From: Promethearchaeota archaeon
GTDB taxonomy: Archaea > Asgardarchaeota > Thorarchaeia > Thorarchaeales > Thorarchaeaceae
Direction of reading: 5' to 3'
Assembly (NCBI GenBank): GCA_014730275.1
Contig: WJIL01000006.1
Span: forward strand, 36,191-100,190
DNA length: 64,000 nt
How positions within the stretch are numbered: position 1 is the first letter of the stretch; each line of letters begins with the position of its first letter. Positions 17,914 through 64,000 of this stretch are shown here, in pieces. A program made the position numbers and the translations under genes. The notes beneath the pieces are model-generated. The model made no database searches and was not told the origin of the DNA. It saw only the letters and a list, made by a program, of their open reading frames with translations.

Positions 17914-19629
17914 TCAGTATATCTTAGGCGAGTCCCATTCCCCAAATACCTCTCTCCATACATCGCAGATTTCGCCTACTGATGCGTATGCACGGACAGC
18001 CTTGACAACCCAAGGCATGACATTTTCATCACCTTCGGATGCTTTCCTCAGCCCTTCCAAAGCCTCCTGAACCGCCTCTTCGTCTCGCTCTTCCCGGACT
18101 CGATTCAGTCGTTCAATCTGCCGTTTTTCAACTTCAGGATCAATCTTCAGCACAGGAATCTCGGGTTCTTTCTCAACCTTGAATTTGTTGACGCCAATAA
18201 TGGTTCGCTCGTTGTTTTCGATTTCCTTCTGATATCGATATGAGGATTTGGCGATTTCTTTCTGGAAGAAACCCTTCTTTATAGCGGGAACTACACCCCC
18301 CATAGCATCTATCTTATCGAAGTACTCATAGGCCTCCTCTTCCAACTCATCCGTTAGTGATTCAATGTAGTACGAACCAGCAAGAGGATCAATGGTGTTT
18401 GCAGCGCCACTCTCGTGTGCTAGTACCTGTTGGGTACGCAGAGCAACACGAACAGCGTCTTCTGAAGGAAGCGCCAAAGCTTCATCCATGCTATTGGTGT
18501 GCAGCGACTGAGTGCCACCAAGAACTGCAGCAAGTGCCTGATATGCAGTTCTAACGATGTTGACCATCGGTTGTTGTGCTGTGAGCGAACAGCCAGCTGT
18601 CTGAGTATGGAACCGCATCCAAAGAGAACGATTCTTCTCCGCACCAAAACGCTCTTTCATCTCGCGTGCCCAAATCCTCCTTGCAGCACGGTACTTGGCA
18701 ACCTCCTCGAATATATCATTGTGAGCATTGAAGAAGAATGACAAGCGCGGTGCAAAATCATCAACGTCCAGCCCTCTCTCGACACACCAATCCACGTACT
18801 CCAATCCATTTCTGAGCGTGAATGCAAGTTCCTGTGCTGCCGTTGACCCTGCTTCGCGAATGTGATACCCACTGATTGAGACCGTGTTCCATCGTGGAAT
18901 GTGTTCGGTGCAGTACTCAATGATATCGACGATAATTCGTAATGATGGCTCAGGTGCATAAATCTCTGAACGCTGAGCTTGAAATTCCTTAAGCAGGTCA
19001 TTCTGAATAGTTCCACCGATTTGGTCAGGAGGGACCCCTTGCTTCTCAGCGACGACCATATACATCGCAAGTAAAATGGAGGCGGGCGCATTGATGGTCA
19101 TGCTTGTGGTGACCTCATCAAGAGGAATTCCGTCGAATAATATTTCCATGTCCTTCAATGTGTCAACTGCTACACCGAGTTTGCCAACTTCACCGTGTGA
19201 CATAGGATGGTCGGAGTCCCGACCATAGATTGTTGGCAAATGGAAAGCAACACTCAGACCGGTTTGTCCATGCTTGAGCAAATACTTGAACCGCTGATTC
19301 GTTTCTTCAGCAGTACCCATGCCTGCAAACTGACGCATAGTCCAGAGTCTGCCCCGGTACATCGTAGGCTGAACTCCCCGTGTGAATGGATACTCGCTTG
19401 GAAATCCCAGGTCCTCGAGGTAGTCAAGATCTTGCGTATCCAGAGGCGTGTAGAGTCTCTTAACCGGCTTGCTAGAAGTGGTTACGAACTCGTCTTTGAT
19501 TTCAGGGTACTTATTCAAATGTGGTTCGAGGGTTTCTTTCTCCCACGTCTTTTTTGCCTTGGCTATGCGATTCGACTCTGGTTTGCTGCCTGCATATTCC
19601 TTCCTCGATTCTGCTTTTTCGGCACCCAT
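17914..19629 (-). CDS. mcmA: Methylmalonyl-CoA mutase large (catalytic, N-terminal TIM-barrel) subunit
   Basis: '[52 protein letters not shown]' and '[12 protein letters not shown]' are diagnostic MCM alpha motifs; no B12-binding domain is fused (archaeal split type). Confidence 0.85.
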
Positions 19630-19707
19630 GTCTAGTTCTCCTGAGTACGATATGGAAGCTGTCCAAAGAGAGGATATTAACTTATTCGATTTTGCCCAAT
19701 GCAGAAC

Positions 19708-20271
19708 TTAGAATTCGAACCCCTTTCTTGCCTTAACGCCTTCTTCCTCGAAGTAATGCTTTACCTCTTTCATCTCAGTAACTAAATCAGCTGCCTCAAT
19801 CACTTCTTCACGGGCATACCTTCCCGTCATGATCAGTTCCATATCATCGGGTTTAGTGCGTATAAGTTCCAGCTGATCCTCCAGACTGAATAAGTCCCAT
19901 TCCACGGCCACATTAATCTCATCAAGAATCAACACATCACAGGTATGGTCAGCAATCGCCTCTTGAGCCATTCGTAGCCCTTTCTGTGCAAGTTCGATAT
20001 CAACAGGGTCAGGATTCTCTTTGTCAACAAATGTTTCTCTGCCAACCGGGACGATAGCGAAATGGGGAATTTTCTGAACCGAAGCAAACTCTCCATAATT
20101 GATATCAACCTTGTCACCCCGCATGGCGACCTTTGCCTTCATGAAGGAAATCATCATCACACCAAGACCATGGCCTGCTGCACGCATACCAGCACCAAGA
20201 GCAGCTGTGGTTTTCCCTTTACCAGTTCCAGTATAAACTTGCACGAGACCTGGCCGAGGTTCATCACTCAT
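19708..20271 (-). CDS. cobA: ATP:cob(I)alamin adenosyltransferase (CobA/CobO/BtuR family)
   Basis: P-loop 'YTGTGKGKTTAALG' and the overall CobA signature; adjacent to the MCM gene. Confidence 0.8.
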   Translation of the reverse strand: MSDEPRPGLVQVYTGTGKGKTTAALGAGMRAAGHGLGVMMISFMKAKVAMRGDKVDINYGEFASVQKIPHFAIVPVGRETFVDKENPDPVDIELAQKGLRMAQEAIADHTCDVLILDEINVAVEWDLFSLEDQLELIRTKPDDMELIMTGRYAREEVIEAADLVTEMKEVKHYFEEEGVKARKGFEF

Positions 20272-20282
20272 TGGAGCCTCAC

Positions 20283-20915
20283 CTATTCATGCATTGTGTT
20301 GACAAGCTCAGCTACACGCTGGCCCAGTTTGATACTGCCCTGAATTGCAAGTTCATCATCCTTTGCGGAGCGCCATTTGCCATCGTCTGTTTGGAGACTC
20401 CCAGCGCCAAAGAAGCCATCTTTCACAGGATTGTCAACTGCTCCCACAACGATCATACCGTGACCGAGAGCAAACCGATTTAGATAGTCAACGATATGTT
20501 CCTGTCCGCCATATCGCAAGCCTGCGTATGATATTGCGCCAAAGATTTTGTCCTTCAGTTCGTTCCCATTCATCTTCATGGGTCTTGATCTGTCGATCAA
20601 ATCCTTCAAGACACCAGGAACAGCAGTGAAGTAAGAAGGAGCGGAAACAATGATTCCATCAGCCTTTCTTAGCCATTCTTCAATCTCTGGCATGTCGTCC
20701 TTTTCACTCTCGGGACAAGGTTTGCGACGAACACATGCATCACAGCCAGTGCAATGACGAATTTCATAGTCGCTCATCTTCAAGAGTACTGTGTTTCCTT
20801 CTTTGTTAGAACTACTAGATAATTCAGAAGAGGCGGCATCAAGTGCCTTCCTCAGGAGAAACTCAGTGTGCGACTTCTCAGTCTTAGGAGATCCACAAAT
20901 ACCAACTACTAGCAT
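20283..20915 (-). CDS. Iron-sulfur flavoprotein / NADPH-dependent FMN reductase-like
   Basis: Flavodoxin-like N-terminus 'MLVVGICGSPK', compact Cys cluster 'CTGCDACVRRKPC', 'GIIVSAPSYF' FMN-reductase motif. Confidence 0.65.
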   Translation of the reverse strand: MLVVGICGSPKTEKSHTEFLLRKALDAASSELSSSSNKEGNTVLLKMSDYEIRHCTGCDACVRRKPCPESEKDDMPEIEEWLRKADGIIVSAPSYFTAVPGVLKDLIDRSRPMKMNGNELKDKIFGAISYAGLRYGGQEHIVDYLNRFALGHGMIVVGAVDNPVKDGFFGAGSLQTDDGKWRSAKDDELAIQGSIKLGQRVAELVNTMHE

Positions 20916-20969: not shown

Positions 20970-21713
20970 TCAGGATGCACTAACGTCTTTCAAAGCTTGT
21001 GTGATTTCATCAACTGCATGAACAGCCTGCATTTTGCTCCCCCCTTTGTAGGGGGCAGCAACTACACTGAATGAGCCAACCTTAAAGAACTGTACATTGT
21101 ATTTATTTACGTTCAAAGATGTCGGCACCATGTCAGGATTTGGCTTGAATCCCGTGTTGATTATTTTATCTTGGATTCGAAGAGCATGAGATTTCGGAAC
21201 GTTGCCGTAAACCATTTTGCCCTTAGCATCAAAAACCCCAATATAGGCAACTTCATAGTTTTCTAAGGCTTCGTCTACAAAATCCCGAGTACAGCCAATC
21301 AATCTCTCGCTGGAAGTTTTTGAATTAACGAGAAGATATCTGTCAATAACACGATCTATCTCGTCCATCTGGGGGATTTCGCCGGAGAATTTGTCCAGAA
21401 CATCTTGATACGACTTTCGGATTGTTTTGCCAAGAGATACCAATCTCTGTTTTAATTGTGCTTTGTCATCTGGATTATGTGTTAGAGCCACAACAGCAAA
21501 TTCACTGAAAATGGCATAAGCCCAGAGTTTGTCATTTTCTTCCAGAAAGTAGGTACGCTGCTTTTCTACAGAATGAGATGAGGTAAGGAGCGTAACACCA
21601 GCAGTAACGCGACTAGGAAGTGATAAATCAAAACTGTTGCCTTCTTCTTTCAAGACCCGTGCATAGGCAAGTTCTCCATTGCTTCTGATAACATACGCGC
21701 TTGCGACTTTCAC
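20970..21713 (-). CDS. Tandem roadblock/LC7 (MglB/longin-like) domain protein
   Basis: Two ~110-aa halves, each with a roadblock-like pattern: 'ASAYVIRSNGELAYARV...KLWAYAIFSEFAVVALTHNPD' and 'EVAYIGVFDAKGKMVYGNVPK...VGSFSVVAAPYKGG'. GTG start preceded by 'aggggag' SD. Confidence 0.45.
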   Translation of the reverse strand: MKVASAYVIRSNGELAYARVLKEEGNSFDLSLPSRVTAGVTLLTSSHSVEKQRTYFLEENDKLWAYAIFSEFAVVALTHNPDDKAQLKQRLVSLGKTIRKSYQDVLDKFSGEIPQMDEIDRVIDRYLLVNSKTSSERLIGCTRDFVDEALENYEVAYIGVFDAKGKMVYGNVPKSHALRIQDKIINTGFKPNPDMVPTSLNVNKYNVQFFKVGSFSVVAAPYKGGSKMQAVHAVDEITQALKDVSAS

Positions 21714-53816: not shown

Positions 53817-54848
53817 ATGCCGATTAGCGAAGATGCCGCAGAAACGTTGGAGCTGTTAGGATTCAAGACGGGGATAGATCATGATTCACGGGCGCTGAGT
53901 CTTCTGCGAGCCATGCTCAAGAAATGTGATGAGACAGGAAAACCAATATCATTCACCACTGCTTATGAAGCCCTACTAAGAGAAGAACCAAGTGCAAGCC
54001 CCTCAAAAGCATGGATTCACAAGGTGCTCAAATCTCTTGTTGATGATGGCCTCGTAACTATGTTCGGAGAGAGCGCACATCGCAAAAGCTATCTCGCAGA
54101 TGCCAAATCTGTGATGAACGGAATCGAAGTCCTTAGAGAGAAAGCTATTGAAAGAGTCTCAGAGACAATAGATAGAAAAAAGGAAGAGCTAGAAATCATA
54201 AGAAATCTGGATTCTGCAGCCCTTGCACAAGAAATCACAGAATGGATAACTGGAAGAAGACAGGCACTAAAGGCCAGATTCATCAAGGGAATTGACGAAT
54301 TTTACAGAGTCATTGACACAACGCTATACAAGAACCTGAAATCCGGAGACGTTCTAAGAATCTGCATATTGACAATCAATCCATTCATGCATAGATTTGA
54401 GAAAAGAATCAGCAAGATGGTTGATATAGCCAGAAAGGGCGTTGAGATAAAATATGCAGTTCCAGCAGGATTGCTAGAGAGAGAGTCTTTCAAAAACAAT
54501 CAAAACCTGAGAAATCTCATAAGAGAAGGTTTGGAAAATCTGATTACACTACAAGGGCAGGGTCACAAAATAGATGCTCGGTTTTTCAACGTCAGTAAGA
54601 AGCATTATCAATTTGTGGCAGCTAATCACGAAAGCATGGCACTCATCATCACAGAAAAACCAATCACCGGAGCATGGATGAGCCGCCGTTTCAACGCAGA
54701 TCTGGTAGACTCAGCTGTTGAATCCTTTGACAAGATTTGGAACAAGTCCAAGTCTGTACTTGACATCCGGTCTTCTGATATCGAATCTTCTGGAATGGAC
54801 ATAGACTCTGAGGTCGCAATGAGCTTCATAGAGGGAGGAAAGGAATAG
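53817..54848 (+). CDS. TrmB-like protein (N-terminal wHTH, coiled coil, C-terminal domain), paralog 1 of 3
   Basis: wHTH-like 'ALSLLRAMLKKCDETGKPISFTTAYEALLR...KAWIHKVLKSLVDDGLVTM'; coiled-coil 'IEVLREKAIERVSETIDRKKEELEIIRNL'; ~210-aa C-terminal domain. Confidence 0.5.
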   Translation: MPISEDAAETLELLGFKTGIDHDSRALSLLRAMLKKCDETGKPISFTTAYEALLREEPSASPSKAWIHKVLKSLVDDGLVTMFGESAHRKSYLADAKSVMNGIEVLREKAIERVSETIDRKKEELEIIRNLDSAALAQEITEWITGRRQALKARFIKGIDEFYRVIDTTLYKNLKSGDVLRICILTINPFMHRFEKRISKMVDIARKGVEIKYAVPAGLLERESFKNNQNLRNLIREGLENLITLQGQGHKIDARFFNVSKKHYQFVAANHESMALIITEKPITGAWMSRRFNADLVDSAVESFDKIWNKSKSVLDIRSSDIESSGMDIDSEVAMSFIEGGKE

Positions 54849-55762
54849 TGACTGTCTCGGGTACAAATCAGACTTCCCTGCTTCAGCTTTATGATGTGAA
54901 TCCACAGGAGAAGAGGATGCACGTCCTGAGAGCCCTGCTTGAAGCATGTGAAAATGAAATCAGAGTCGGTTTTTCGGACATTCTGAAACACCTCAGCGGC
55001 GAGGATACTGAGAAGCCCAATGAATCATTGATTTATCGTCTGCTAAGCTCCTTGGAAGACGAGGACTTCATTGAGGTTGATAGGAGCGGCTACAGACACA
55101 GATACTATACAGATTTGAATCGAATAGAGACAGCTCTAGAGAAAAAGAAGGGAAGTGCTCTTCAAACACTTTCTGAAGACAGAATTAAACTGAAACGAAA
55201 ACTTGAGCGGCTCAACAATATCAGAATAGGTCTACTGGTCGACAGAGTCATCAAGGTGATGACTGATTCTAAATGGGATGATAGATCGCGTTTTGGCATG
55301 GGTCTCAGAACCCTACAGCTCATGGCTGATCGAGAGGTATACGCACAGGTAACTCGAGGAGATATCGTACGGATTACAGTTGATGACGTGGATCTTCAAT
55401 CTCCACAGTGGAGCGAGCGCGTCGAAGTTTTTGGGAATCTAGCTTCAAGGGGCGTAAAAGTGAGAGTCCTTTTCACTTGGCCATGTAGACAGGTAAAGAA
55501 TGCGTGGAGAAATACGACGGAAGAGTATCTAAATCTCAAAAATCAAGGCCTAGATGTCGATTTTCGTATCCGGAGCGGAGACCTGACCTATCAGATGGTA
55601 ACAAGGAATGCCGAGGTCCTAGTATTGACTGTAGCAGAGGAACCATTGGCTTCCATATGCGTTCCTAGAAACGAGAATCCAACGTTATTAGATGATGTCG
55701 TAGACAGTTTTGATGCAGAATTCACGTCATCTTACAGTTTAGGTGAAGGTGATATCCGATGA
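54848..55762 (+). CDS. TrmB-like protein, paralog 2 of 3
   Basis: GTG start overlapping the upstream stop (taGTGa); 'MHVLRALLEACENEIRVGFSDILKHLSG...SLIYRLLSSLEDEDFIEVD' wHTH-like, coiled coil, C-terminal domain. Confidence 0.5.
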   Translation: MTVSGTNQTSLLQLYDVNPQEKRMHVLRALLEACENEIRVGFSDILKHLSGEDTEKPNESLIYRLLSSLEDEDFIEVDRSGYRHRYYTDLNRIETALEKKKGSALQTLSEDRIKLKRKLERLNNIRIGLLVDRVIKVMTDSKWDDRSRFGMGLRTLQLMADREVYAQVTRGDIVRITVDDVDLQSPQWSERVEVFGNLASRGVKVRVLFTWPCRQVKNAWRNTTEEYLNLKNQGLDVDFRIRSGDLTYQMVTRNAEVLVLTVAEEPLASICVPRNENPTLLDDVVDSFDAEFTSSYSLGEGDIR

Positions 55763-56730
55763 ACAACCGAATTCATGTTTCGGAACTGTCACTTTTTGAA
55801 CTCGATATGGCATCGCGCAAAATGGATGTTCTTGAAGCTGTTCTGAAGTCGGTGGAAGGAGACTCTGCTACAGCTGATTTTGAGGAGATATTCGAAATAG
55901 TAAACGCTGAAAAAAGTAACAACCTCTCCAAGAGTTGGATCTATAAATGCCTCGGGGAACTAGAACAAGAGGGGTTCGTAGTAGTTGATCGAATAAGTAC
56001 GCCGAACAAATACATGGCTACAAAAGAGACCATAGCAAAGGCATTAGAAAGCGCCAAAAAGGAACAAATGGTCAAGCTCCACGAGAAGATAAACCAAAAC
56101 AGGAAAAATGAACAAGTTATTCAGAATACAAGCATACACAAACTTGCAAGAGAACTTGCAGGAAAATCCGACAAAGAATCAAGGGATTACTCACACCTAA
56201 TCGAGGGTAGTGAAAACGTCAGAGGTTCATTGATTTCTGAGATACTGAATGCCGCAAATCAAGGTAGTGTTATTAGAATAGCTAACTCTTCGGTTTCTTT
56301 AACGAGCAATCTCGGTGAACGGGGGCCAGTAGAAGTACGAATGCTTGAACAAGCACTAAATGGAGTTGAAATGAGAGTTCTTTTTTCTAGAGAGAACACA
56401 AGAGCAAATGAACCAAAATCGATTTCCTCGTTCATGAATGATGCACTCCCGCTATTGGGAAAAGCGGTATCCTCAGGTCATTTGAAATTGAGAGCTATTG
56501 AGGAAGAGAGAGGCACATATCGCAGCGTAATCAAAGATGAGGAAAAAATGATTCTGTACTTATCTGATACATACAAAGCAGATGCAGCCTTTTTCATATC
56601 AGATGAAGATAATGAAACACTGATTCAGCATGCCATCAAGATATTCGATGAACGCTGGGGAAACGCCGTGGATATGACAGATATGTTGAGAACAACTCTT
56701 TCAAATATCAATTATGAACCTGCAGGCTAG
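55759..56730 (+). CDS. TrmB-like protein, paralog 3 of 3
   Basis: ATGA overlap with paralog 2; 'MDVLEAVLKSVEGDSATADFEEIFEIVNAEKSNNLSKSWIYKCLGELEQEGFVVVD' wHTH-like, coiled coil, C-terminal domain. Confidence 0.5.
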   Translation: MNNRIHVSELSLFELDMASRKMDVLEAVLKSVEGDSATADFEEIFEIVNAEKSNNLSKSWIYKCLGELEQEGFVVVDRISTPNKYMATKETIAKALESAKKEQMVKLHEKINQNRKNEQVIQNTSIHKLARELAGKSDKESRDYSHLIEGSENVRGSLISEILNAANQGSVIRIANSSVSLTSNLGERGPVEVRMLEQALNGVEMRVLFSRENTRANEPKSISSFMNDALPLLGKAVSSGHLKLRAIEEERGTYRSVIKDEEKMILYLSDTYKADAAFFISDEDNETLIQHAIKIFDERWGNAVDMTDMLRTTLSNINYEPAG

Positions 56731-57932: not shown

Positions 57933-59795
57933 ATGGTAGACGGCGACCAAGTTTTGATGAGCGGAAATGAAGCAATCGCCAGGGGAGCAATTGAAGCGGG
58001 TATTAGATTCTGTGCATCATATCCAGGAACACCATCAACTGAAATCACCGAGTATGTTATGAACGAAAGCGATAGAAGAGGTATTCATGCAGAATGGTCC
58101 ACAAATGAAAAGGTGGCTCTTGAAGCCAGTACTGCAGCAAGCTGGGCAGGACTACCAGCTCTTTGTCCGATGAAGTCATTGGGATTGAATGTCGCTGCTG
58201 ATTTTCTGCTGAATGTCAACTTATCAGGAACAGGAGATGGCGGGTTAGTAATCGTGGTCTGTGATGATCCTAGAGGGCACAGTTCGAGCAATGAACAGGA
58301 TTCGCGATTCTATGCAAAAGCAGCAAGCCTTCCGCTACTTGAGCCAGAATCATGTCAACAGGCAAAGGATATGATGCCCTATGCATTTGAGATTTCCAAG
58401 AAGCATGAAATCCCTGTGATACTCAGAAGCACAACCAGATTGAGCCACACTAGGGCAGTAGTGAATCTGGGAGAAATCCCGGACATCGAGGGTGCATCAG
58501 CTCATACTGTCTCTTCAAACCTCTATAATGTACCGAGACCAGACCTAAAACACAAGCAGTTGCTCGAAAAGCTTGCTGACATAAGAGAAGAGTTCGAAAA
58601 GTCGCAGTTCAATGATTTGGATAGCTCTGAAAAGAGTCTGAGGGTCCTCACATCTGGAGTAACCAACGCTTATTCAGATGAAGCGATGAGGAAATTGAAT
58701 CTGGAAGATGCCGAGATACTGTCTCTAGCAACAACATTCCCACTTCCAGAGAAGTCAGTGATGAAGGCCATAGATTCTGCCCAGGATGTACTCTTTACTG
58801 AAGAGGGCCAACCATTTATTGAAGAGAATGTTGCGATTCTATTTGCTAGGAGAAGGAACCAGAGCCCACCCACGCTTTACGGAAAGAGTAACGGGCTGAT
58901 TGAACGCTATGGTGAGTTGAATGTAGACAAAGTGGCTCGCGCACTATCCAGAATTACTGGTCGCGAATATCAACCTGTTGCCCGTAGTTTTGATGAAGAC
59001 GCTCAACAGTCTCGAGAGCTACTGCTGGACAGACCACCAACGTTTTGCCCGGGATGCGGTCATCGGATTGTGTATTGGGCAATTAGAAAAGCAAAACAAA
59101 GATTCGGTAAGCCAGTTGTGGTTACCGGCGACATAGGCTGCTATTCAATGGGAGTTTTCTATGATTCCTCACTAGATACAATGCAATCTATGGGGTCAGG
59201 CATTGGTACCGCATCTGGATTGGGGCAGCTTGAGAGATTCGGATTTGAACAAAAAGTAATTGCGGTAGCGGGAGATTCCACATTCTTCCATGCATGCTTA
59301 CCGGGCCTTGTCAATGCTAGAAACAAAAATGCAGACTTGACATTCATTATTATCGACAATAATACGACAGCCATGACTGGATTTCAACCAAGCCCCAGCT
59401 CACATACTAAGAGAGGCGAAACATTCCCCGTGGACATAGAAAGCATGGCGAGGGCTACTCTTCCGGATTACATCGATATTGGTATTGCTTCAGACATGCA
59501 AGATACAACCAATCTTATTCATGAAAGCTTGACCAGAGATGGGCTCAAAATCATAATTCTGAAGGGAGTTTGTAGACTCGCTGAAAGAGAAGAGAGCGAA
59601 ACGGAAAGGCCGCAAATCTACGTTGATGCAGATAGTTGTATTGGAGAGAACTGCAGGCTTTGTATGACTCAATTCGGTTGCTTGGCTATTGGATGGAATG
59701 AAGAGGAGAATCATGCAGAAATCCAGAACCATCTATGCGTTCGATGCGGTGACTGTATTGACGTTTGTCCTCATGATGCAATACGGAGGAAATGA
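57933..59795 (+). CDS. iorA: Indolepyruvate:ferredoxin oxidoreductase alpha subunit
   Basis: TPP/PFOR domains ('GDIGCYSMG', 'IIIDNNTTAMTGFQPSP') and C-terminal 2x[4Fe-4S] 'CIGENCRLCMTQFGC...CVRCGDCIDVCPHDAI'; 620-aa size typical of IorA. Confidence 0.85.
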   Translation: MVDGDQVLMSGNEAIARGAIEAGIRFCASYPGTPSTEITEYVMNESDRRGIHAEWSTNEKVALEASTAASWAGLPALCPMKSLGLNVAADFLLNVNLSGTGDGGLVIVVCDDPRGHSSSNEQDSRFYAKAASLPLLEPESCQQAKDMMPYAFEISKKHEIPVILRSTTRLSHTRAVVNLGEIPDIEGASAHTVSSNLYNVPRPDLKHKQLLEKLADIREEFEKSQFNDLDSSEKSLRVLTSGVTNAYSDEAMRKLNLEDAEILSLATTFPLPEKSVMKAIDSAQDVLFTEEGQPFIEENVAILFARRRNQSPPTLYGKSNGLIERYGELNVDKVARALSRITGREYQPVARSFDEDAQQSRELLLDRPPTFCPGCGHRIVYWAIRKAKQRFGKPVVVTGDIGCYSMGVFYDSSLDTMQSMGSGIGTASGLGQLERFGFEQKVIAVAGDSTFFHACLPGLVNARNKNADLTFIIIDNNTTAMTGFQPSPSSHTKRGETFPVDIESMARATLPDYIDIGIASDMQDTTNLIHESLTRDGLKIIILKGVCRLAEREESETERPQIYVDADSCIGENCRLCMTQFGCLAIGWNEEENHAEIQNHLCVRCGDCIDVCPHDAIRRK

Positions 59796-59801
59796 TCCAA
59801 G

Positions 59802-60407
59802 TTGAAATATCATCAAAACATTCTGATAGCGGGTGTAGGCGGACAAGGCAACCTTGTTTGTGGCAAAGCGCTTGCTGAAGCATCAATAAAGGATGGTTAC
59901 AGACCTGTTGTAGGTCAGATATTCGGAGCTTCAAGAAGAGGAGGGACTGTTCAGACCCATGTAAGAATAGGCAATAGCAATTTGGGTCCACTCATACCTC
60001 GTGGTGATGTAGATGTTATTCTTGGTCTTGAACCTATGGAATCCCTAAGAGCGGCAATAGAGTACGCTGGCCCCGAAACTATTGCACTTGTAAGTGAAAC
60101 TCCTGTGCAAACAGTAGATTCATTGGCAGGAAGAAAATCATACCCCGAGATTGACGAGTTGCGGGCGTCACTATCAGCACTTGCAAGAAAAGTCTATTCG
60201 GTAAATCCCAAAGAGACACTCGAGAGTCTTGGAACGTACCGTGTCCAGAATTCGTATATGTTGGGAGCGCTATGCGGTATTCAAGCTGCTATCCTCAGCG
60301 AAGAATCTATCAAGAATGGACTCCTTGCGATAGTAGGCAGAAGCCAAACCAATACAAAGGCATTCGAAGAGGGGTTGAAAGCTGGAAAACGTGCATCTGG
60401 CAAATAA
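59802..60407 (+). CDS. iorB: Indolepyruvate:ferredoxin oxidoreductase beta subunit
   Basis: 'NILIAGVGGQGNLVCGKALAEA' PFOR-gamma-like N-terminus; TTG start 6 nt after the iorA stop. Confidence 0.8.
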   Translation: MKYHQNILIAGVGGQGNLVCGKALAEASIKDGYRPVVGQIFGASRRGGTVQTHVRIGNSNLGPLIPRGDVDVILGLEPMESLRAAIEYAGPETIALVSETPVQTVDSLAGRKSYPEIDELRASLSALARKVYSVNPKETLESLGTYRVQNSYMLGALCGIQAAILSEESIKNGLLAIVGRSQTNTKAFEEGLKAGKRASGK

Positions 60408-60512
60408 ACGGCGAGATTGTCTGAAATCTCCAAAAATTGAATTTCAAAAAAAAATAGAATAAACTGTATTTTACTAATAGCCCTTAAAGCAGGATTGTGG
60501 GTGAAGCCTAAC

Positions 60513-60677
60513 TTAGTATTTCTCAATCATGGGCTTGCGTTTTTCAATCTCTTCTTGCGGCATAGGATCAAGACCATGTGCATCAGCACCATGCTTCTTG
60601 ATTTTCTCCACTACCGCATCTTTTGTTTCGCCGGTAACAGATGCATCACACATCCTGCAATCAAATCTATATGGCAT
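60513..60677 (-). CDS. Unlisted 54-aa ORF, possible small metal-binding protein (DUF1059-like?)
   Basis: Manual translation of the - strand: 'MPYRFDCRMCDASVTGETKDAVVEKIKKHGADAHGLDPMPQEEIEKRKPMIEKY'; lies in an otherwise empty convergent gap. Confidence 0.35.
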   Translation of the reverse strand: MPYRFDCRMCDASVTGETKDAVVEKIKKHGADAHGLDPMPQEEIEKRKPMIEKY

Positions 60678-60760
60678 TTTATTCACTATAGTTAATTTTG
60701 TAAAATGTCCTTAAGTAATATGGGATACCTCATCGCACTAAAGTTCGGGATAACTGGCAG

Positions 60761-63058
60761 CTAGAATTGATTGTCTTCTTTCTTCTGTTTAGCCATTTCT
60801 TGTGCATCCTCGTACATGAGATTCGCCAGAATGGTAAACATATCTGCGACTCCTTCTCCAGTCTTAGCACTGGTTTCCATGTAGAGGAATCCTTGGTCTT
60901 CAGCCCATTTCTTCGCTTCGTATGGATCGACCGCTCGATCAGGAAGATCTATCTTGTTTCCCACAACAAGAGCTGGGACTTTCCTTCCGATAGACTCGTA
61001 TGCCTCCTCCACCCAGTTTGGAAGCTCTGCGAAGGACCTTCGTCGAGTCACGTCATAAACCAGAATGACACCAGCCGCTCCACTATAGTACATCTTTCGT
61101 ACTGCTTGGAACCGGGCCTGTCCTGCTACATCCCACACTTGTAGTTTGAGACCAACTGCATGATCTTTCTCTTCGGGGTAGATATGGGTGAGTTTGACAG
61201 CGAATTGGCTACCAATCGTGGTCTTGTAATCTTTCTCGAAGCTTCCCGTTGTATACCGATTAACAAGTGCGGTCTTACCAACAGCACCGGGTCCCACAAT
61301 CATGCTCTTCATCAGATACTCATAAGCATCTTCGGATTTGCCAGGTGGAAGAGGTTTGGGTTCCCTATTTCGTATATCTGTTACTAATTCGCTCTCTACT
61401 TGCTCAGGTTCCTCAGGAGCTGGCGGTTCTTCTGGCTCAGTTACTGTCTCCGTCATTGCCTTCAAATCGTCGCCACTGGGTCCTACAGGCTCAGTCTCCC
61501 CGAAAATATCATCCAACATTTTGGAAGCTGCTTCAAGTTGCTGTTTCTCACTTTCAGTATACGCCGATTCTGTTTCAGCTTCAGGCTCCGTTGTCACACT
61601 ACCAAAACCTGTACCCTCCGACCTCACAGAAGAAGACGATTCAACAGGTGCTTCTTGAGGTTGAGAGGGGGTATCAAGGGTCACTTCAGGAGCAGATGCT
61701 GGAGAAGCCTTTGCTTCGCCTTCTTTTACTGAAATAGCTGTCTCAGGGGTCGTGACCTGTTTGACGTTTCCGGATTGATCAGTCCACATCAACACAATTG
61801 GGCGAATAACAACCGTTCCCTCTTCAAGTGGTCTTAAATGAACTTGAATGGATTTACATTCTTGGGAACCAAGATCGAAAGCCAACTCTTTGGGTTCTAC
61901 TTCCATGTTGTCTTTGGGAAACCAATAGATTTTGCCTTTGATTCCCGAGATTGATTTTTCGGTAGCATTGGTGACTGTTACTTCTCCTTTCAGCTCTTCA
62001 CCAGCAGCAGCTTCACGACTAACCTCAAAACGTGGAATTATCTCATAGAGACCTTCGAGGACCTTGAGAGGGCCGTTTGAAACTCCAACTAGGACCTCTT
62101 TGCGTTCATCTCCACCTGCGTCTCCTACACTTATGGAAAGAATCTTTCTTCCAATATCAGTCACAGCTAGCTGCTTCAATTCAGCCATGTACAGGCTATA
62201 GAAAACAATCTCTTGTGTGGCGTTGGCTACAATTATCTCGTCCATATGATCAGCATTTATCTCAGCCATCCGAATCGACAATGCGTCGACATGCTCGAGT
62301 TTGGAGAACATATCAAGCTGACTTTCTTCATTGCGATATATCCTGATAGAGCCATCATGAGTCACAACTCCGAGCTCCATCTTTCGGTCTCCAAGAATAT
62401 CACCTGCTGCTAATGAGATAACAGGGCTTGGGAGATCAAGCACCGCAATTTCATCGGCTGAATTTCCTCTAATCTTGAAAACACGCAATGTTTTGTCACG
62501 ATTACCAATGACTATCTCATCTATCTCATCGCCAATTACATCGCAGGTACCAATACAGAGAGGCATATCTTCGAGGGTGTAGCAAACGAGTTCTTCCAGG
62601 TGATTATCAGCACCCATCTTGAAAACTCTAAGAGTGGAATCACTTCCACCTGCTATGATTTCGTTCTTATCATCACCAGTAACATCAGTGACTTCCACAG
62701 TAGTTACGAAACGGCCAATAGGCTGTTCCGCGATAAGCTCAATTTGACCACTAGGAGCGTATCGATAAACTTGGAGTGTACCCGTTTCTCCGCCTGCACC
62801 ACTTACACTTCGACCAACAACGATTTCCATTTGTCCGTCATTGTTCGCATCTTCAACGCTTATTGAGAGGATGCTCCCTTGAACAGATACCTGAGCAAGG
62901 AAGTCTAGGTGATCTGTATCGGCTTTGTATAACCGGAGAATCCCGTCTCGTCCACCAGTGCAAATCTCCGGCCTCGTTGAGCCTGTCAGATCACCTGTAG
63001 CCGAGGCACTAGTGCTAGTATCGTCTTCCACTTCAAAGAGTATCTTAGGCGAATCCAA
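60761..63058 (-). CDS. Multidomain small GTPase: N-terminal FG-GAP-type beta-propeller + Ig-like domain + acidic S/T/P/E-rich linker + C-terminal Rab/Ras-like GTPase
   Basis: Six or more blades with 'D-x-(N/T/G)-G-D-x-x-x-E-(I/L)-(V/I)-x-G' FG-GAP-like motifs ('DANNDGQMEIVVG','DVTGDDKNEIIAG','DVIGDEIDEIVIG','DAGGDERKEVLVG'). GTPase G1 'GPGAVGKTALV', G2 'YKTTIG', G3 'WDVAGQARF', G4 'GNKIDL', G5 'ETSAKTG'. No C-terminal Cys for prenylation. TTG start. Confidence 0.8.
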   Translation of the reverse strand: MDSPKILFEVEDDTSTSASATGDLTGSTRPEICTGGRDGILRLYKADTDHLDFLAQVSVQGSILSISVEDANNDGQMEIVVGRSVSGAGGETGTLQVYRYAPSGQIELIAEQPIGRFVTTVEVTDVTGDDKNEIIAGGSDSTLRVFKMGADNHLEELVCYTLEDMPLCIGTCDVIGDEIDEIVIGNRDKTLRVFKIRGNSADEIAVLDLPSPVISLAAGDILGDRKMELGVVTHDGSIRIYRNEESQLDMFSKLEHVDALSIRMAEINADHMDEIIVANATQEIVFYSLYMAELKQLAVTDIGRKILSISVGDAGGDERKEVLVGVSNGPLKVLEGLYEIIPRFEVSREAAAGEELKGEVTVTNATEKSISGIKGKIYWFPKDNMEVEPKELAFDLGSQECKSIQVHLRPLEEGTVVIRPIVLMWTDQSGNVKQVTTPETAISVKEGEAKASPASAPEVTLDTPSQPQEAPVESSSSVRSEGTGFGSVTTEPEAETESAYTESEKQQLEAASKMLDDIFGETEPVGPSGDDLKAMTETVTEPEEPPAPEEPEQVESELVTDIRNREPKPLPPGKSEDAYEYLMKSMIVGPGAVGKTALVNRYTTGSFEKDYKTTIGSQFAVKLTHIYPEEKDHAVGLKLQVWDVAGQARFQAVRKMYYSGAAGVILVYDVTRRRSFAELPNWVEEAYESIGRKVPALVVGNKIDLPDRAVDPYEAKKWAEDQGFLYMETSAKTGEGVADMFTILANLMYEDAQEMAKQKKEDNQF

Positions 63059-63080: not shown

Positions 63081-63087
63081 TAAATAT
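63081..63087 (-). promoter_or_regulatory. TATA-like box (ATATTTA on - strand) ~23-26 nt upstream of the GTPase-fusion start
   Basis: Reverse complement 'gcATATTTAcaatacacgaggatgacacagcTTG'. Confidence 0.3.
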
Positions 63088-63245: not shown

Positions 63246-64000
63246 GTGCAGGTGGCACCGGTGTCGAAACTTGCCGTTCAGAATATCAAGAAATCATATT
63301 CGAATGACGGCTTAGAAAAAACGAAGGTCCTGGATGGCATCAGCTTTGCCATGGAGGAAGGCGAGTTTACCGCCATAGTTGGTCCATCTGGTTGTGGCAA
63401 AACGACACTCCTCAAAATCATCGCTGGTTTGCTAGAATCGGACGAGGGGCAAGTCAGAATCGATGACCATTCAGTAGGTCTCGGACATAGCAGAGTAGGT
63501 TACATTTTCCAACAAGAATCTTTGTTTCCGTGGCTGAATGTGGAACAGAATATCAGATTCGGACTAGATATTATGGGGTATTCCTCTCAAGAGATTGCTA
63601 CGAGAACCGACGAAATGTTGGATCTTGTTGGGCTGGAAGGTTTAGAAAAAAACTACCCACATGAAATCTCAGGAGGTCAAGCTAGACGGGTAGAGATGGC
63701 CCGAAGCCTCATCACCAGACCAGACATTCTCGTTTCTGACGAGGCTTTTTCCAATCTGGACGCTCAAACACGTAACTATCTACAGGATGAATTCCTACGA
63801 ATCTGGGAAAACACGGGTTCAAGCATACTTTTCGTTACCCACAATGTTGATGAAGCAGTCTACACCTCTGATCGTATACTCGTGCTTAGCAATATTCCAT
63901 CCAAAATAATCGCTGAATTCGAGATAGATATTCCCAGACCGCGGGATAGAACCTCAAAGGAATGTATCGAATACCGTGCGGAGGTTCTTGAGATTCTAAA
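63246..64000 (+). CDS. ABC transporter ATP-binding protein (NitT/TauT-type), 3' truncated by window edge
   Basis: Walker A 'GPSGCGKTT', Q-loop, signature 'ISGGQARR', Walker B 'ILVSDEAFSNLD'. Confidence 0.8.
   Translation, partial: MQVAPVSKLAVQNIKKSYSNDGLEKTKVLDGISFAMEEGEFTAIVGPSGCGKTTLLKIIAGLLESDEGQVRIDDHSVGLGHSRVGYIFQQESLFPWLNVEQNIRFGLDIMGYSSQEIATRTDEMLDLVGLEGLEKNYPHEISGGQARRVEMARSLITRPDILVSDEAFSNLDAQTRNYLQDEFLRIWENTGSSILFVTHNVDEAVYTSDRILVLSNIPSKIIAEFEIDIPRPRDRTSKECIEYRAEVLEIL

Follow-up and report, generated by a model that had tools for sequence, protein, structure and literature searches.

How a small GTPase without a lipid anchor is directed to its place of action, and what it regulates, are questions raised by one gene in a 64,000-nt stretch of a Promethearchaeota archaeon assembly (GCA_014730275.1, contig WJIL01000006.1, positions 36,191 to 100,190 of the forward strand; hereafter the window). 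Eukaryote-like small GTPases are numerous in Asgard archaea. The gene, at 60761..63058 on the minus strand, encodes a 765-aa protein in which a Rab-like G domain follows a seven-bladed beta-propeller, an immunoglobulin-like (Ig-like) beta-sandwich and a disordered leash. Our preferred explanation, to which we give a probability of only about 0.4, is that the protein is a cytoplasmic multidomain Rab-like GTPase of Thorarchaeota-type Asgards, whose leashed switch acts on its own propeller/Ig platform. An initial annotation, made by a model from the sequence alone, had placed the 765-aa open reading frame (ORF) at exactly this position. The protein is the same as GenBank MBD3157313.1 (100% identity, 765/765 residues, identical start), and because the match extends over all 765 residues, the NCBI pipeline picked the same TTG start. 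The gene has thus already been deposited, under the generic annotation "GTP-binding protein" only. The initial annotation had recognised no named family, in agreement with the sources, which say only "GTP-binding protein" or "hypothetical". The gene is real, far beyond chance, since about 160 clusters at 90% identity have the whole architecture, and no other ORF in the whole window resembles its propeller, Ig-like or G domain. The gene and its four parts are as follows.

60761..63058, minus strand: complete gene, 765 aa; TTG start, stop codon at 60761-60763, homologues agreeing on start and length
62051..63046, minus strand: seven-bladed FG-GAP/calcium-blade beta-propeller, aa 5-336 (Pfam FG-GAP, repeat alignment, AlphaFold2 model)
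61718..62050, minus strand: Ig-like beta-sandwich packed on the propeller, aa 337-447 (AlphaFold2 strands at aa 340-445)
61319..61717, minus strand: acidic, low-complexity, poorly conserved linker, aa 448-580, 133 aa (composition and conservation)
60764..61318, minus strand: Rab-like small GTPase domain, aa 581-765 (Pfam Ras, TIGR00231, PDB 7ezb match)

The complete G1–G5 set reported by the initial annotation was located motif by motif.

61271..61294, minus strand: G1/P-loop GPGAVGKT, aa 589-596 (sequence motif)
aa 611-616: switch I YKTTIG with the switch I Thr (sequence motif)
61079..61135, minus strand: G3/switch II and RabF2-F4 WDVAGQARFQAVRKMYYSG, aa 642-660 (WDVAGQ at 642-647, catalytic Gln647)
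60947..60958, minus strand: G4 NKID, aa 701-704 (sequence motif)
60863..60871, minus strand: G5 SAK, aa 730-732 (sequence motif)

Pfam Ras (PF00071) covers aa 584-748 with 157.5 bits (2.8e-46; cut-off 21.6), and the NCBIfam small_GTP model (TIGR00231) scores 89.5 bits against a cut-off of 42.5. Sequence ranking against the PDB places the "Thorarchaeota Rab" 7ezb first, followed by the eukaryotic Rab14, Rab30, Rab2, Rab43, Rab4, Rab11, Rab8 and Rab1; among the best 60 entries every named one is a Rab, Ypt or Sec4, and three rows carry generic names only. Bacterial-type readings were rejected, MglA on scores and Era/Obg/YlqF at about 14-15 bits against NCBIfam cut-offs above 200, so that the Rab-like assignment made earlier holds and no grouping with MglA/Era-type families is seen. 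A BLAST comparison with human reference sequences, a lead rather than a test, gave about 120 bits for Rab1, Rab5 and Rab11, 108 for Rab7, 93 for Ran, 71 for HRas, 60 for Rac1 and 44 for Arf1, the G domain being 34-40% identical to human Rabs; in the same comparison, the Thorarchaeota Rab reached 166 bits. The Rab signatures IGSQF, KLQVW, RFQAVR, YYSGA and LVYDVT can be recognised and are conserved in the family, as is a YxYLFK lead-in that precedes strand 1. All three residues of the Rab hydrophobic triad, F619/W642/Y657, are invariant, and no part of the protein is more conserved than switch II (0.99); together these observations argue for a conserved binding partner. By its motifs, the G domain is Rab-like and its switch apparently catalytically competent.

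The closest relative of this domain with a solved structure is the Thorarchaeota Rab (7ezb/7ezd/7eze; Tran et al., 2024, PMC10933270), matched at 2e-47 and with about 45% identity by BLAST over the aligned stretch. The G1–G5 motifs, RabF-like motifs, hydrophobic triad, catalytic Gln and YxYLFK lead-in are shared with both the Thorarchaeota and the eukaryotic Rabs. As in other Asgard Rab-like proteins, the prenylation Cys is missing: none occurs in the last six residues of the window protein, as noted earlier, or of 117 full-length homologues, and the prenylated hypervariable tail of eukaryotic Rabs is absent. Whereas 7ezb is a 182-aa stand-alone protein, the G domain here forms the C-terminal quarter of 765 aa, behind the propeller, the Ig-like domain and the 133-aa leash. 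Small GTPases associated with longin, roadblock and DENN domains have been documented in Asgard archaea (PMC10933270; 10.1101/2020.10.19.343400), and domain shuffling is extensive in narrow Asgard subsets (10.1101/2020.10.19.343400). The present protein, as a lineage-restricted fusion of a eukaryote-like GTPase with accessory domains, fits this pattern. In contrast, the reported Asgard fusions are Rag/Arf-like GTPases with longin or roadblock domains. No paper on a propeller, Ig, leash and Rab architecture was found in a search of the literature outside subscription journals; what is new is the combination of propeller, Ig-like and Rab domains, multidomain Asgard GTPases being known generally. 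A possible roadblock/longin gene had been suggested elsewhere in the window, and Pfam gives this no support: the 247-aa ORF at 20970..21713 (minus strand) has no Pfam match at E ≤ 0.001, and up to E = 1 only noise (DUF5370, CHASE4, FlaF).

WD40 and Roc domains co-occur in ROCO proteins, and the Pfam Roc model also matches this G domain (104 bits, 6e-30; Arf, 47.6 bits). A doubtful alternative is thus a dimerisation-activated GTPase of the ROCO/GAD-like kind, in which the propeller/Ig part would homo-oligomerise and the paired G domains trigger hydrolysis. The Ig-like GAE domains of the BBSome, which are dimerisation modules (PMC7018513), offer a parallel for such pairing. However, Ras leads Roc by 53 bits, no COR or other Pfam domain lies between the Ig-like and G domains, and the G domain has the catalytic Gln of conventional Rabs, which depend on a GTPase-activating protein. 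Identity with ROCO itself was rejected: the G domain sits at the C-terminus, followed by no more than about 15 residues, and no COR match was obtained. The coupling of a Ras-superfamily G domain to a seven-bladed propeller recalls both ROCO (LRRK2) and G-alpha/G-beta, by analogy only. Unlike ROCO, the Thorarchaeota protein has no COR or kinase domain, and its propeller is N-terminal and of the FG-GAP rather than the WD40 type; G-alpha and G-beta, for their part, are separate chains.

The N-terminal part folds as the FG-GAP-type propeller that had been proposed. An AlphaFold2 model of aa 1-447, built on a 124-row alignment, has a mean predicted local distance difference test score (pLDDT) of 93.5 and a predicted template modelling score (pTM) of 0.90, and its residues 6-334 form 28 beta-strands in seven four-stranded blades. 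PF13517 (FG-GAP_3) matches with 65-70 bits against a cut-off of 26.9, and seven in-register repeats follow the unit h-x-h-x-D-h-x-G-D-x-x-x-E-h-h-h-G-x-x-D-x-x-h-R-h-[FY], so that the "at least six" repeats of the initial annotation are indeed present and their exact number is seven. The Ig-like beta domain announced after the propeller appears in the model as a beta-sandwich that follows directly, without an intervening helix, and because the pTM is high the two domains are taken to pack rigidly. By sequence, the sandwich gives sub-threshold Pfam matches only (BatD/DUF11-like 0.0057, ASH 0.028, fn3_6 0.05), with ASH matched in 6 of 14 family members at a best E of about 1e-3. Nothing below E = 0.2 was returned by an Ig-only profile against PDB sequences, and no relatives outside the family were found by sequence search. 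One blade carries the only canonical Dx[DN]xDGxxE motif of the propeller:

62825..62851, minus strand: calcium-blade motif DANNDGQME, aa 70-78, blade 2 (read from sequence)

The remaining six blades have the degenerate form D-x-x-G-D-x-x-x-E. In the family alignment (A1), D70, A71, D74, G75 and E78 never vary, and conservation of N72 and N73 reaches at least 90%; D70, D74, G75 and E78 are still invariant in a more divergent alignment (A3), and D70 remains so even when distant propeller-only proteins are added. The blade-2 loop is a predicted Ca2+-binding Dx[DN]xDG loop.

The resemblance of this propeller to solved structures bears on another explanation, namely that the propeller and Ig-like domain are a specific archaeal homologue or precursor of BBS1/2/7/9 or of the ITFG2/KPTN propeller subunits. 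A Foldseek search of 350,542 PDB chains gave BBS2, BBS9 and BBS7 as places 1-8 (1.2e-16 to 8e-13), followed by ITFG2 and BBS1. Integrin alpha lay outside the top 50 of that search, and the earlier description of the repeats as integrin-alpha-like applies at the superfamily level only, with BBS2/9/7/1 and ITFG2 in the lead. A family profile searched against the PDB likewise favoured ITFG2 of KICSTOR (1.5e-8), then BBS7 (1e-3) and BBS2 (6e-3), over integrin alpha-V (0.4), and the three best propeller matches of a single-sequence PDB search were BBS1, BBS2 and BBS7, all weak. In Pfam, Beta-prop_BBS7 (53-58 bits) and BBS2_Mid (45-50 bits) are above cut-off, with PTHB1/BBS9, BBS1 and Itfg2 near threshold; against a cut-off of 27, Itfg2 scores 26.6 bits with the full protein and 30.1 bits with the N-terminal part, compared with 34-50 bits for generic FG-GAP proteins. 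However, unrelated prokaryotic FG-GAP proteins used as a control (P0126, P0127, P0132, P0134, P0150, P0277 and P0278) match BBS2_Mid, BBS1, BBS7 and Itfg2 equally or better, and the Pfam matches were rejected as a specific link to the BBSome. Among 1.84 billion representatives, the sequences closest to the family from outside it belong to giant prokaryotic FG-GAP/VCBS proteins and, at up to 125 bits, stand far above any BBS score.

The region behind the propeller adds to the structural side of this comparison. The full-length BBS9 chain scores 1.8e-16 over 512 columns in Foldseek, against 1.2e-10 over 364 columns for the propeller-only crystal, and full-length BBS1 scores 2.6e-12 against 2.6e-10. 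The better scores and longer alignments of these full-length chains hint that the post-propeller beta-sandwich aligns with the Ig-like GAE domain of the BBS proteins; sequence gives this no support, the domain having no detectable relative. BBS1 consists of propeller, helix and GAE domain, and BBS2/7/9 have a platform and a coiled coil in addition; in BBS2 the Dx[DN]xDG loops bind Ca2+, and on BBS1 it is propeller blades 1 and 7 that receive ARL6-GTP (PMC7018513). The Thorarchaeota protein thus shares with BBS1/2/7/9 (6vbu, 6vbv, 6voa, 4v0m) a cytoplasmic seven-bladed FG-GAP/calcium-blade propeller followed by an Ig-like beta-sandwich, with BBS2 the calcium-loop motif, and with the BBSome the pairing of a small GTPase with a propeller. 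Unlike the BBSome subunits, it lacks the heterodimerisation helix, the platform and the coiled coil, its next 133 aa being disordered, and its GTPase is Rab-like rather than Arf-like as ARL6 is, and covalently fused. ITFG2 (KICSTOR; 9v6e, 9o5a) differs in having no GTPase fused to it, and its alignment is confined to the propeller. The family was not found in other Asgard classes by these searches, and Pfam scans of ten neighbouring window ORFs and of the corresponding loci of two Thorarchaeota genomes (L001 and L002) contained no BBS-family domains, no genome-wide search for BBS4/5/8/18 or ARL6 having been made. No paper linking the BBSome or ITFG2 to Asgard archaea was found in the literature search described above.

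Taken together, the propeller belongs to the FG-GAP/calcium-blade superfamily and, among solved structures, is nearest to its cytoplasmic eukaryotic branch (BBS, ITFG2), not to integrins. That it shares a specific ancestor with BBSome or KICSTOR subunits is not established by the present evidence, and a specific archaeal homologue or precursor of those subunits is improbable. Even more speculative is the proposal that the protein represents an archaeal single-chain version of the GTPase-on-propeller/GAE adaptor (ARL6-BBS1, ITFG2/KPTN) and shares ancestry with those subunits; if true, this would put the origin of such coat, adaptor and scaffold proteins in Asgards, before cilia or lysosomes.

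The initial annotation had also suggested a surface-facing scaffold. Neither a signal peptide nor a transmembrane helix was found in the window protein (maximum KD19 1.59), and its N-terminus is acidic. A hydrophobic signal- or transmembrane-like segment occurs in 0 of 124 family members, compared with 75 of the 151 nearest non-family FG-GAP proteins. A GTPase domain needs cytoplasmic GTP. Because it lacks a signal peptide and a transmembrane helix and combines an acidic N-terminus with a nucleotide-dependent domain, the protein is predicted to be cytoplasmic and not surface-facing. An extracytoplasmic, surface-exposed FG-GAP/Ig scaffold of the adhesin-like type would have in its favour that many FG-GAP plus Ig proteins are found at the surface, as the hydrophobic segments of half the non-family matches illustrate, and that the Dx[DN]xDG calcium-blade motif is biased towards extracellular proteins (PMC3123361, from which the motif definition used here is taken). 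Since cytoplasmic calcium-blade propellers are known as well, in BBS2 and kaptin (PMC3123361), and a GTPase domain depends on cytoplasmic nucleotide, such a scaffold is very improbable.

With the N-terminal part as query, 162 clusters (90% identity) were obtained, and identities in the best 120 lie at 61-99%; full-length entries among these have 751-783 aa, and three shorter ones are partial records. Where names are given in these 120, most read "Candidatus Thorarchaeota" and a few Lokiarchaeota, Sifarchaeia or Promethearchaeota, in keeping with the Asgard origin called earlier from the GTPase. At 50% identity only three clusters cover the propeller and Ig region, after which the score falls from 339 to 125 bits. 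The four-part architecture is found in every full-length family member, including the outlier P0122 (41% identity, 781 aa), a singleton lineage from an archaeal metagenome-assembled genome (MAG), for which a scan of genome contigs found the same lineage only, split over two contigs. Among the 151 closest propellers from outside the family, no G domain occurs, and on this comparison of sequences the fusion is obligate in the family. Mean column identity is 72% across 69 full-length members. The family is narrow, with nearly all members labelled Thorarchaeota plus one divergent lineage; its class-level distribution rests on source labels, and homologue searches found none in other Asgard classes. 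The labels conflict, MBD3157313.1 being deposited as "Candidatus Lokiarchaeota archaeon" whereas the 92%-identical P0004 and most relatives are Thorarchaeota. The gene order of the window matches Thorarchaeota genomes, and the MAG label of MBD3157313.1 may be wrong or outdated.

The linker that joins the platform to the switch is acidic and disordered, as had been claimed, and at 133 aa somewhat shorter than the 150 aa or so first given. D and E make up 25% of it, K and R 7%, P/S/T/E/G/A 67% and hydrophobic residues 16%; it also carries indels and shows the lowest conservation in the protein (0.43-0.62). Three conserved islands lie within it, at aa 482-486 (GTGFG), at aa 506-520 and, just before the G domain, at aa 556-575. 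The second of these may be written as follows.

61499..61543, minus strand: amphipathic helix island LEAASKMLDDIFG, aa 506-520 (A511, L515 and F519 invariant)

A helix at 507-519 also appears in a low-confidence single-sequence AlphaFold2 model of the full-length protein (pLDDT 38).

In the mechanism that we favour, the propeller/Ig platform would stand in for the prenylated hypervariable tail of eukaryotic Rabs by holding the switch at one cellular site or partner complex. On its leash, the Rab domain would bind or let go of a nearby surface depending on its nucleotide state. The likeliest surfaces are the conserved linker helix and one side of the propeller/Ig platform, whether of the same chain or of another molecule, and such binding and release may control whether partners assemble on the platform. 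The logic would be that of ARL6-GTP on the BBS1 propeller or of G-alpha switch II on the G-beta propeller, by analogy, in a single chain. Docking of a small GTPase on such a propeller has precedent (4v0m/6vbv, PMC7018513). The gene is monocistronic and has no operon partner, so the partner domains are likely to lie in the same chain, and the islands of the linker are conserved amid otherwise free-drifting sequence.

The obligate fusion and the near-invariant switch II are also compatible with the propeller being a guanine nucleotide exchange factor (GEF) that acts in cis on the tethered Rab. The protein would then activate itself once Ca2+, a ligand or the like engages the propeller. Seven-bladed propellers are proven GEFs of small GTPases, RCC1 for Ran and Sec12 for Sar1, and the conserved calcium-blade motif could be regulatory. 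We regard this cis-acting GEF as unlikely, on a par with the dimerisation-activated GTPase.

Several points weigh against a leashed switch that acts on its own platform. An interface of the G domain with the platform, in cis or in trans, is so far hypothetical. Neither a binding partner nor a membrane or cargo emerged from the analysis, and the gene neighbourhood is uninformative. The conserved surfaces of the switch and triad might just as well bind an effector that is not linked to them, and GTP binding, GTP hydrolysis and Ca2+ binding are predicted from sequence motifs. Moreover, because lineage-specific domain shuffling is extensive in Asgard genomes (10.1101/2020.10.19.343400), fusion need not mean a direct switch between domains.

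The protein is nevertheless a tractable case, in which an intact Rab-like switch is permanently tied to a well-folded platform for protein interactions, in a family that strong purifying selection has preserved throughout an Asgard class. Since the likely partner domains are in the same chain, nucleotide-dependent docking is directly testable with one recombinant protein. And because the closest solved propellers themselves work with small GTPases, the family offers a natural outgroup for the origin of the BBSome and KICSTOR scaffolds.

Upstream of the gene lies a promoter candidate.

63081..63087, minus strand: TATA-like ATATTTA, about 23-29 nt upstream of the TTG start (read directly from sequence)

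This box suggests a possible archaeal promoter and a leaderless or short-leader monocistronic mRNA; a scan for bacterial-type promoters and terminators gave signal at chance level. In three genomes, the window and the Thorarchaeota loci L001 and L002, the GTPase gene stands alone between a divergent ABC ATPase gene upstream and convergent IorBA genes downstream, a synteny with metabolic neighbours that looks inherited rather than functional. The convergent pair at 57933..60407 (plus strand) comprises IorA-like (620 aa; TPP_enzyme_C, POR_N, Fer4) and IorB-like (201 aa; POR) genes of a 2-oxoacid:ferredoxin oxidoreductase, and its arrangement is kept in L001 and L002. Between it and the GTPase gene, the 353-bp gap at 60408..60760 is AT-richer (GC 0.38), holds short spurious ORFs only and contains none of the listed terminator-like sites. 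The ABC-transporter ATPase gene runs from about 63255 to 64000 (plus strand) and past the window end, with Walker A GPSGCGKTT, signature ISGGQ and Walker B ILVSDEA, and in L001 and L002 it is part of an NMT1/BPD_transp_1/ABC_tran transporter cluster.

In relatives, extra small GTPase genes occur near a conserved DHH gene close to the propeller-Rab gene, and the window has no counterpart there. The P0122 lineage has a 319-aa Arf-like protein at this place (L003 13794-14753), and CP070761 a 177-aa stand-alone Ras/Arf-like protein (L001 16110-16643). Three tightly packed consecutive genes at 53817..56730 (plus strand; 343, 304 and 323 aa), without a Pfam family and with weak winged-helix-like matches only (MCM4_WHD, PadR, TrmB), are kept beside the DHH gene in two Thorarchaeota genomes (L001 17931-20909; L002 16010-18946) and may form an uncharacterised conserved operon. 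Farther away, at 17914..20915 (minus strand), a B12-related cluster encodes a methylmalonyl-CoA mutase (571 aa, 3.5e-231), an ATP:corrinoid adenosyltransferase (187 aa) and an FMN reductase-like protein (210 aa).

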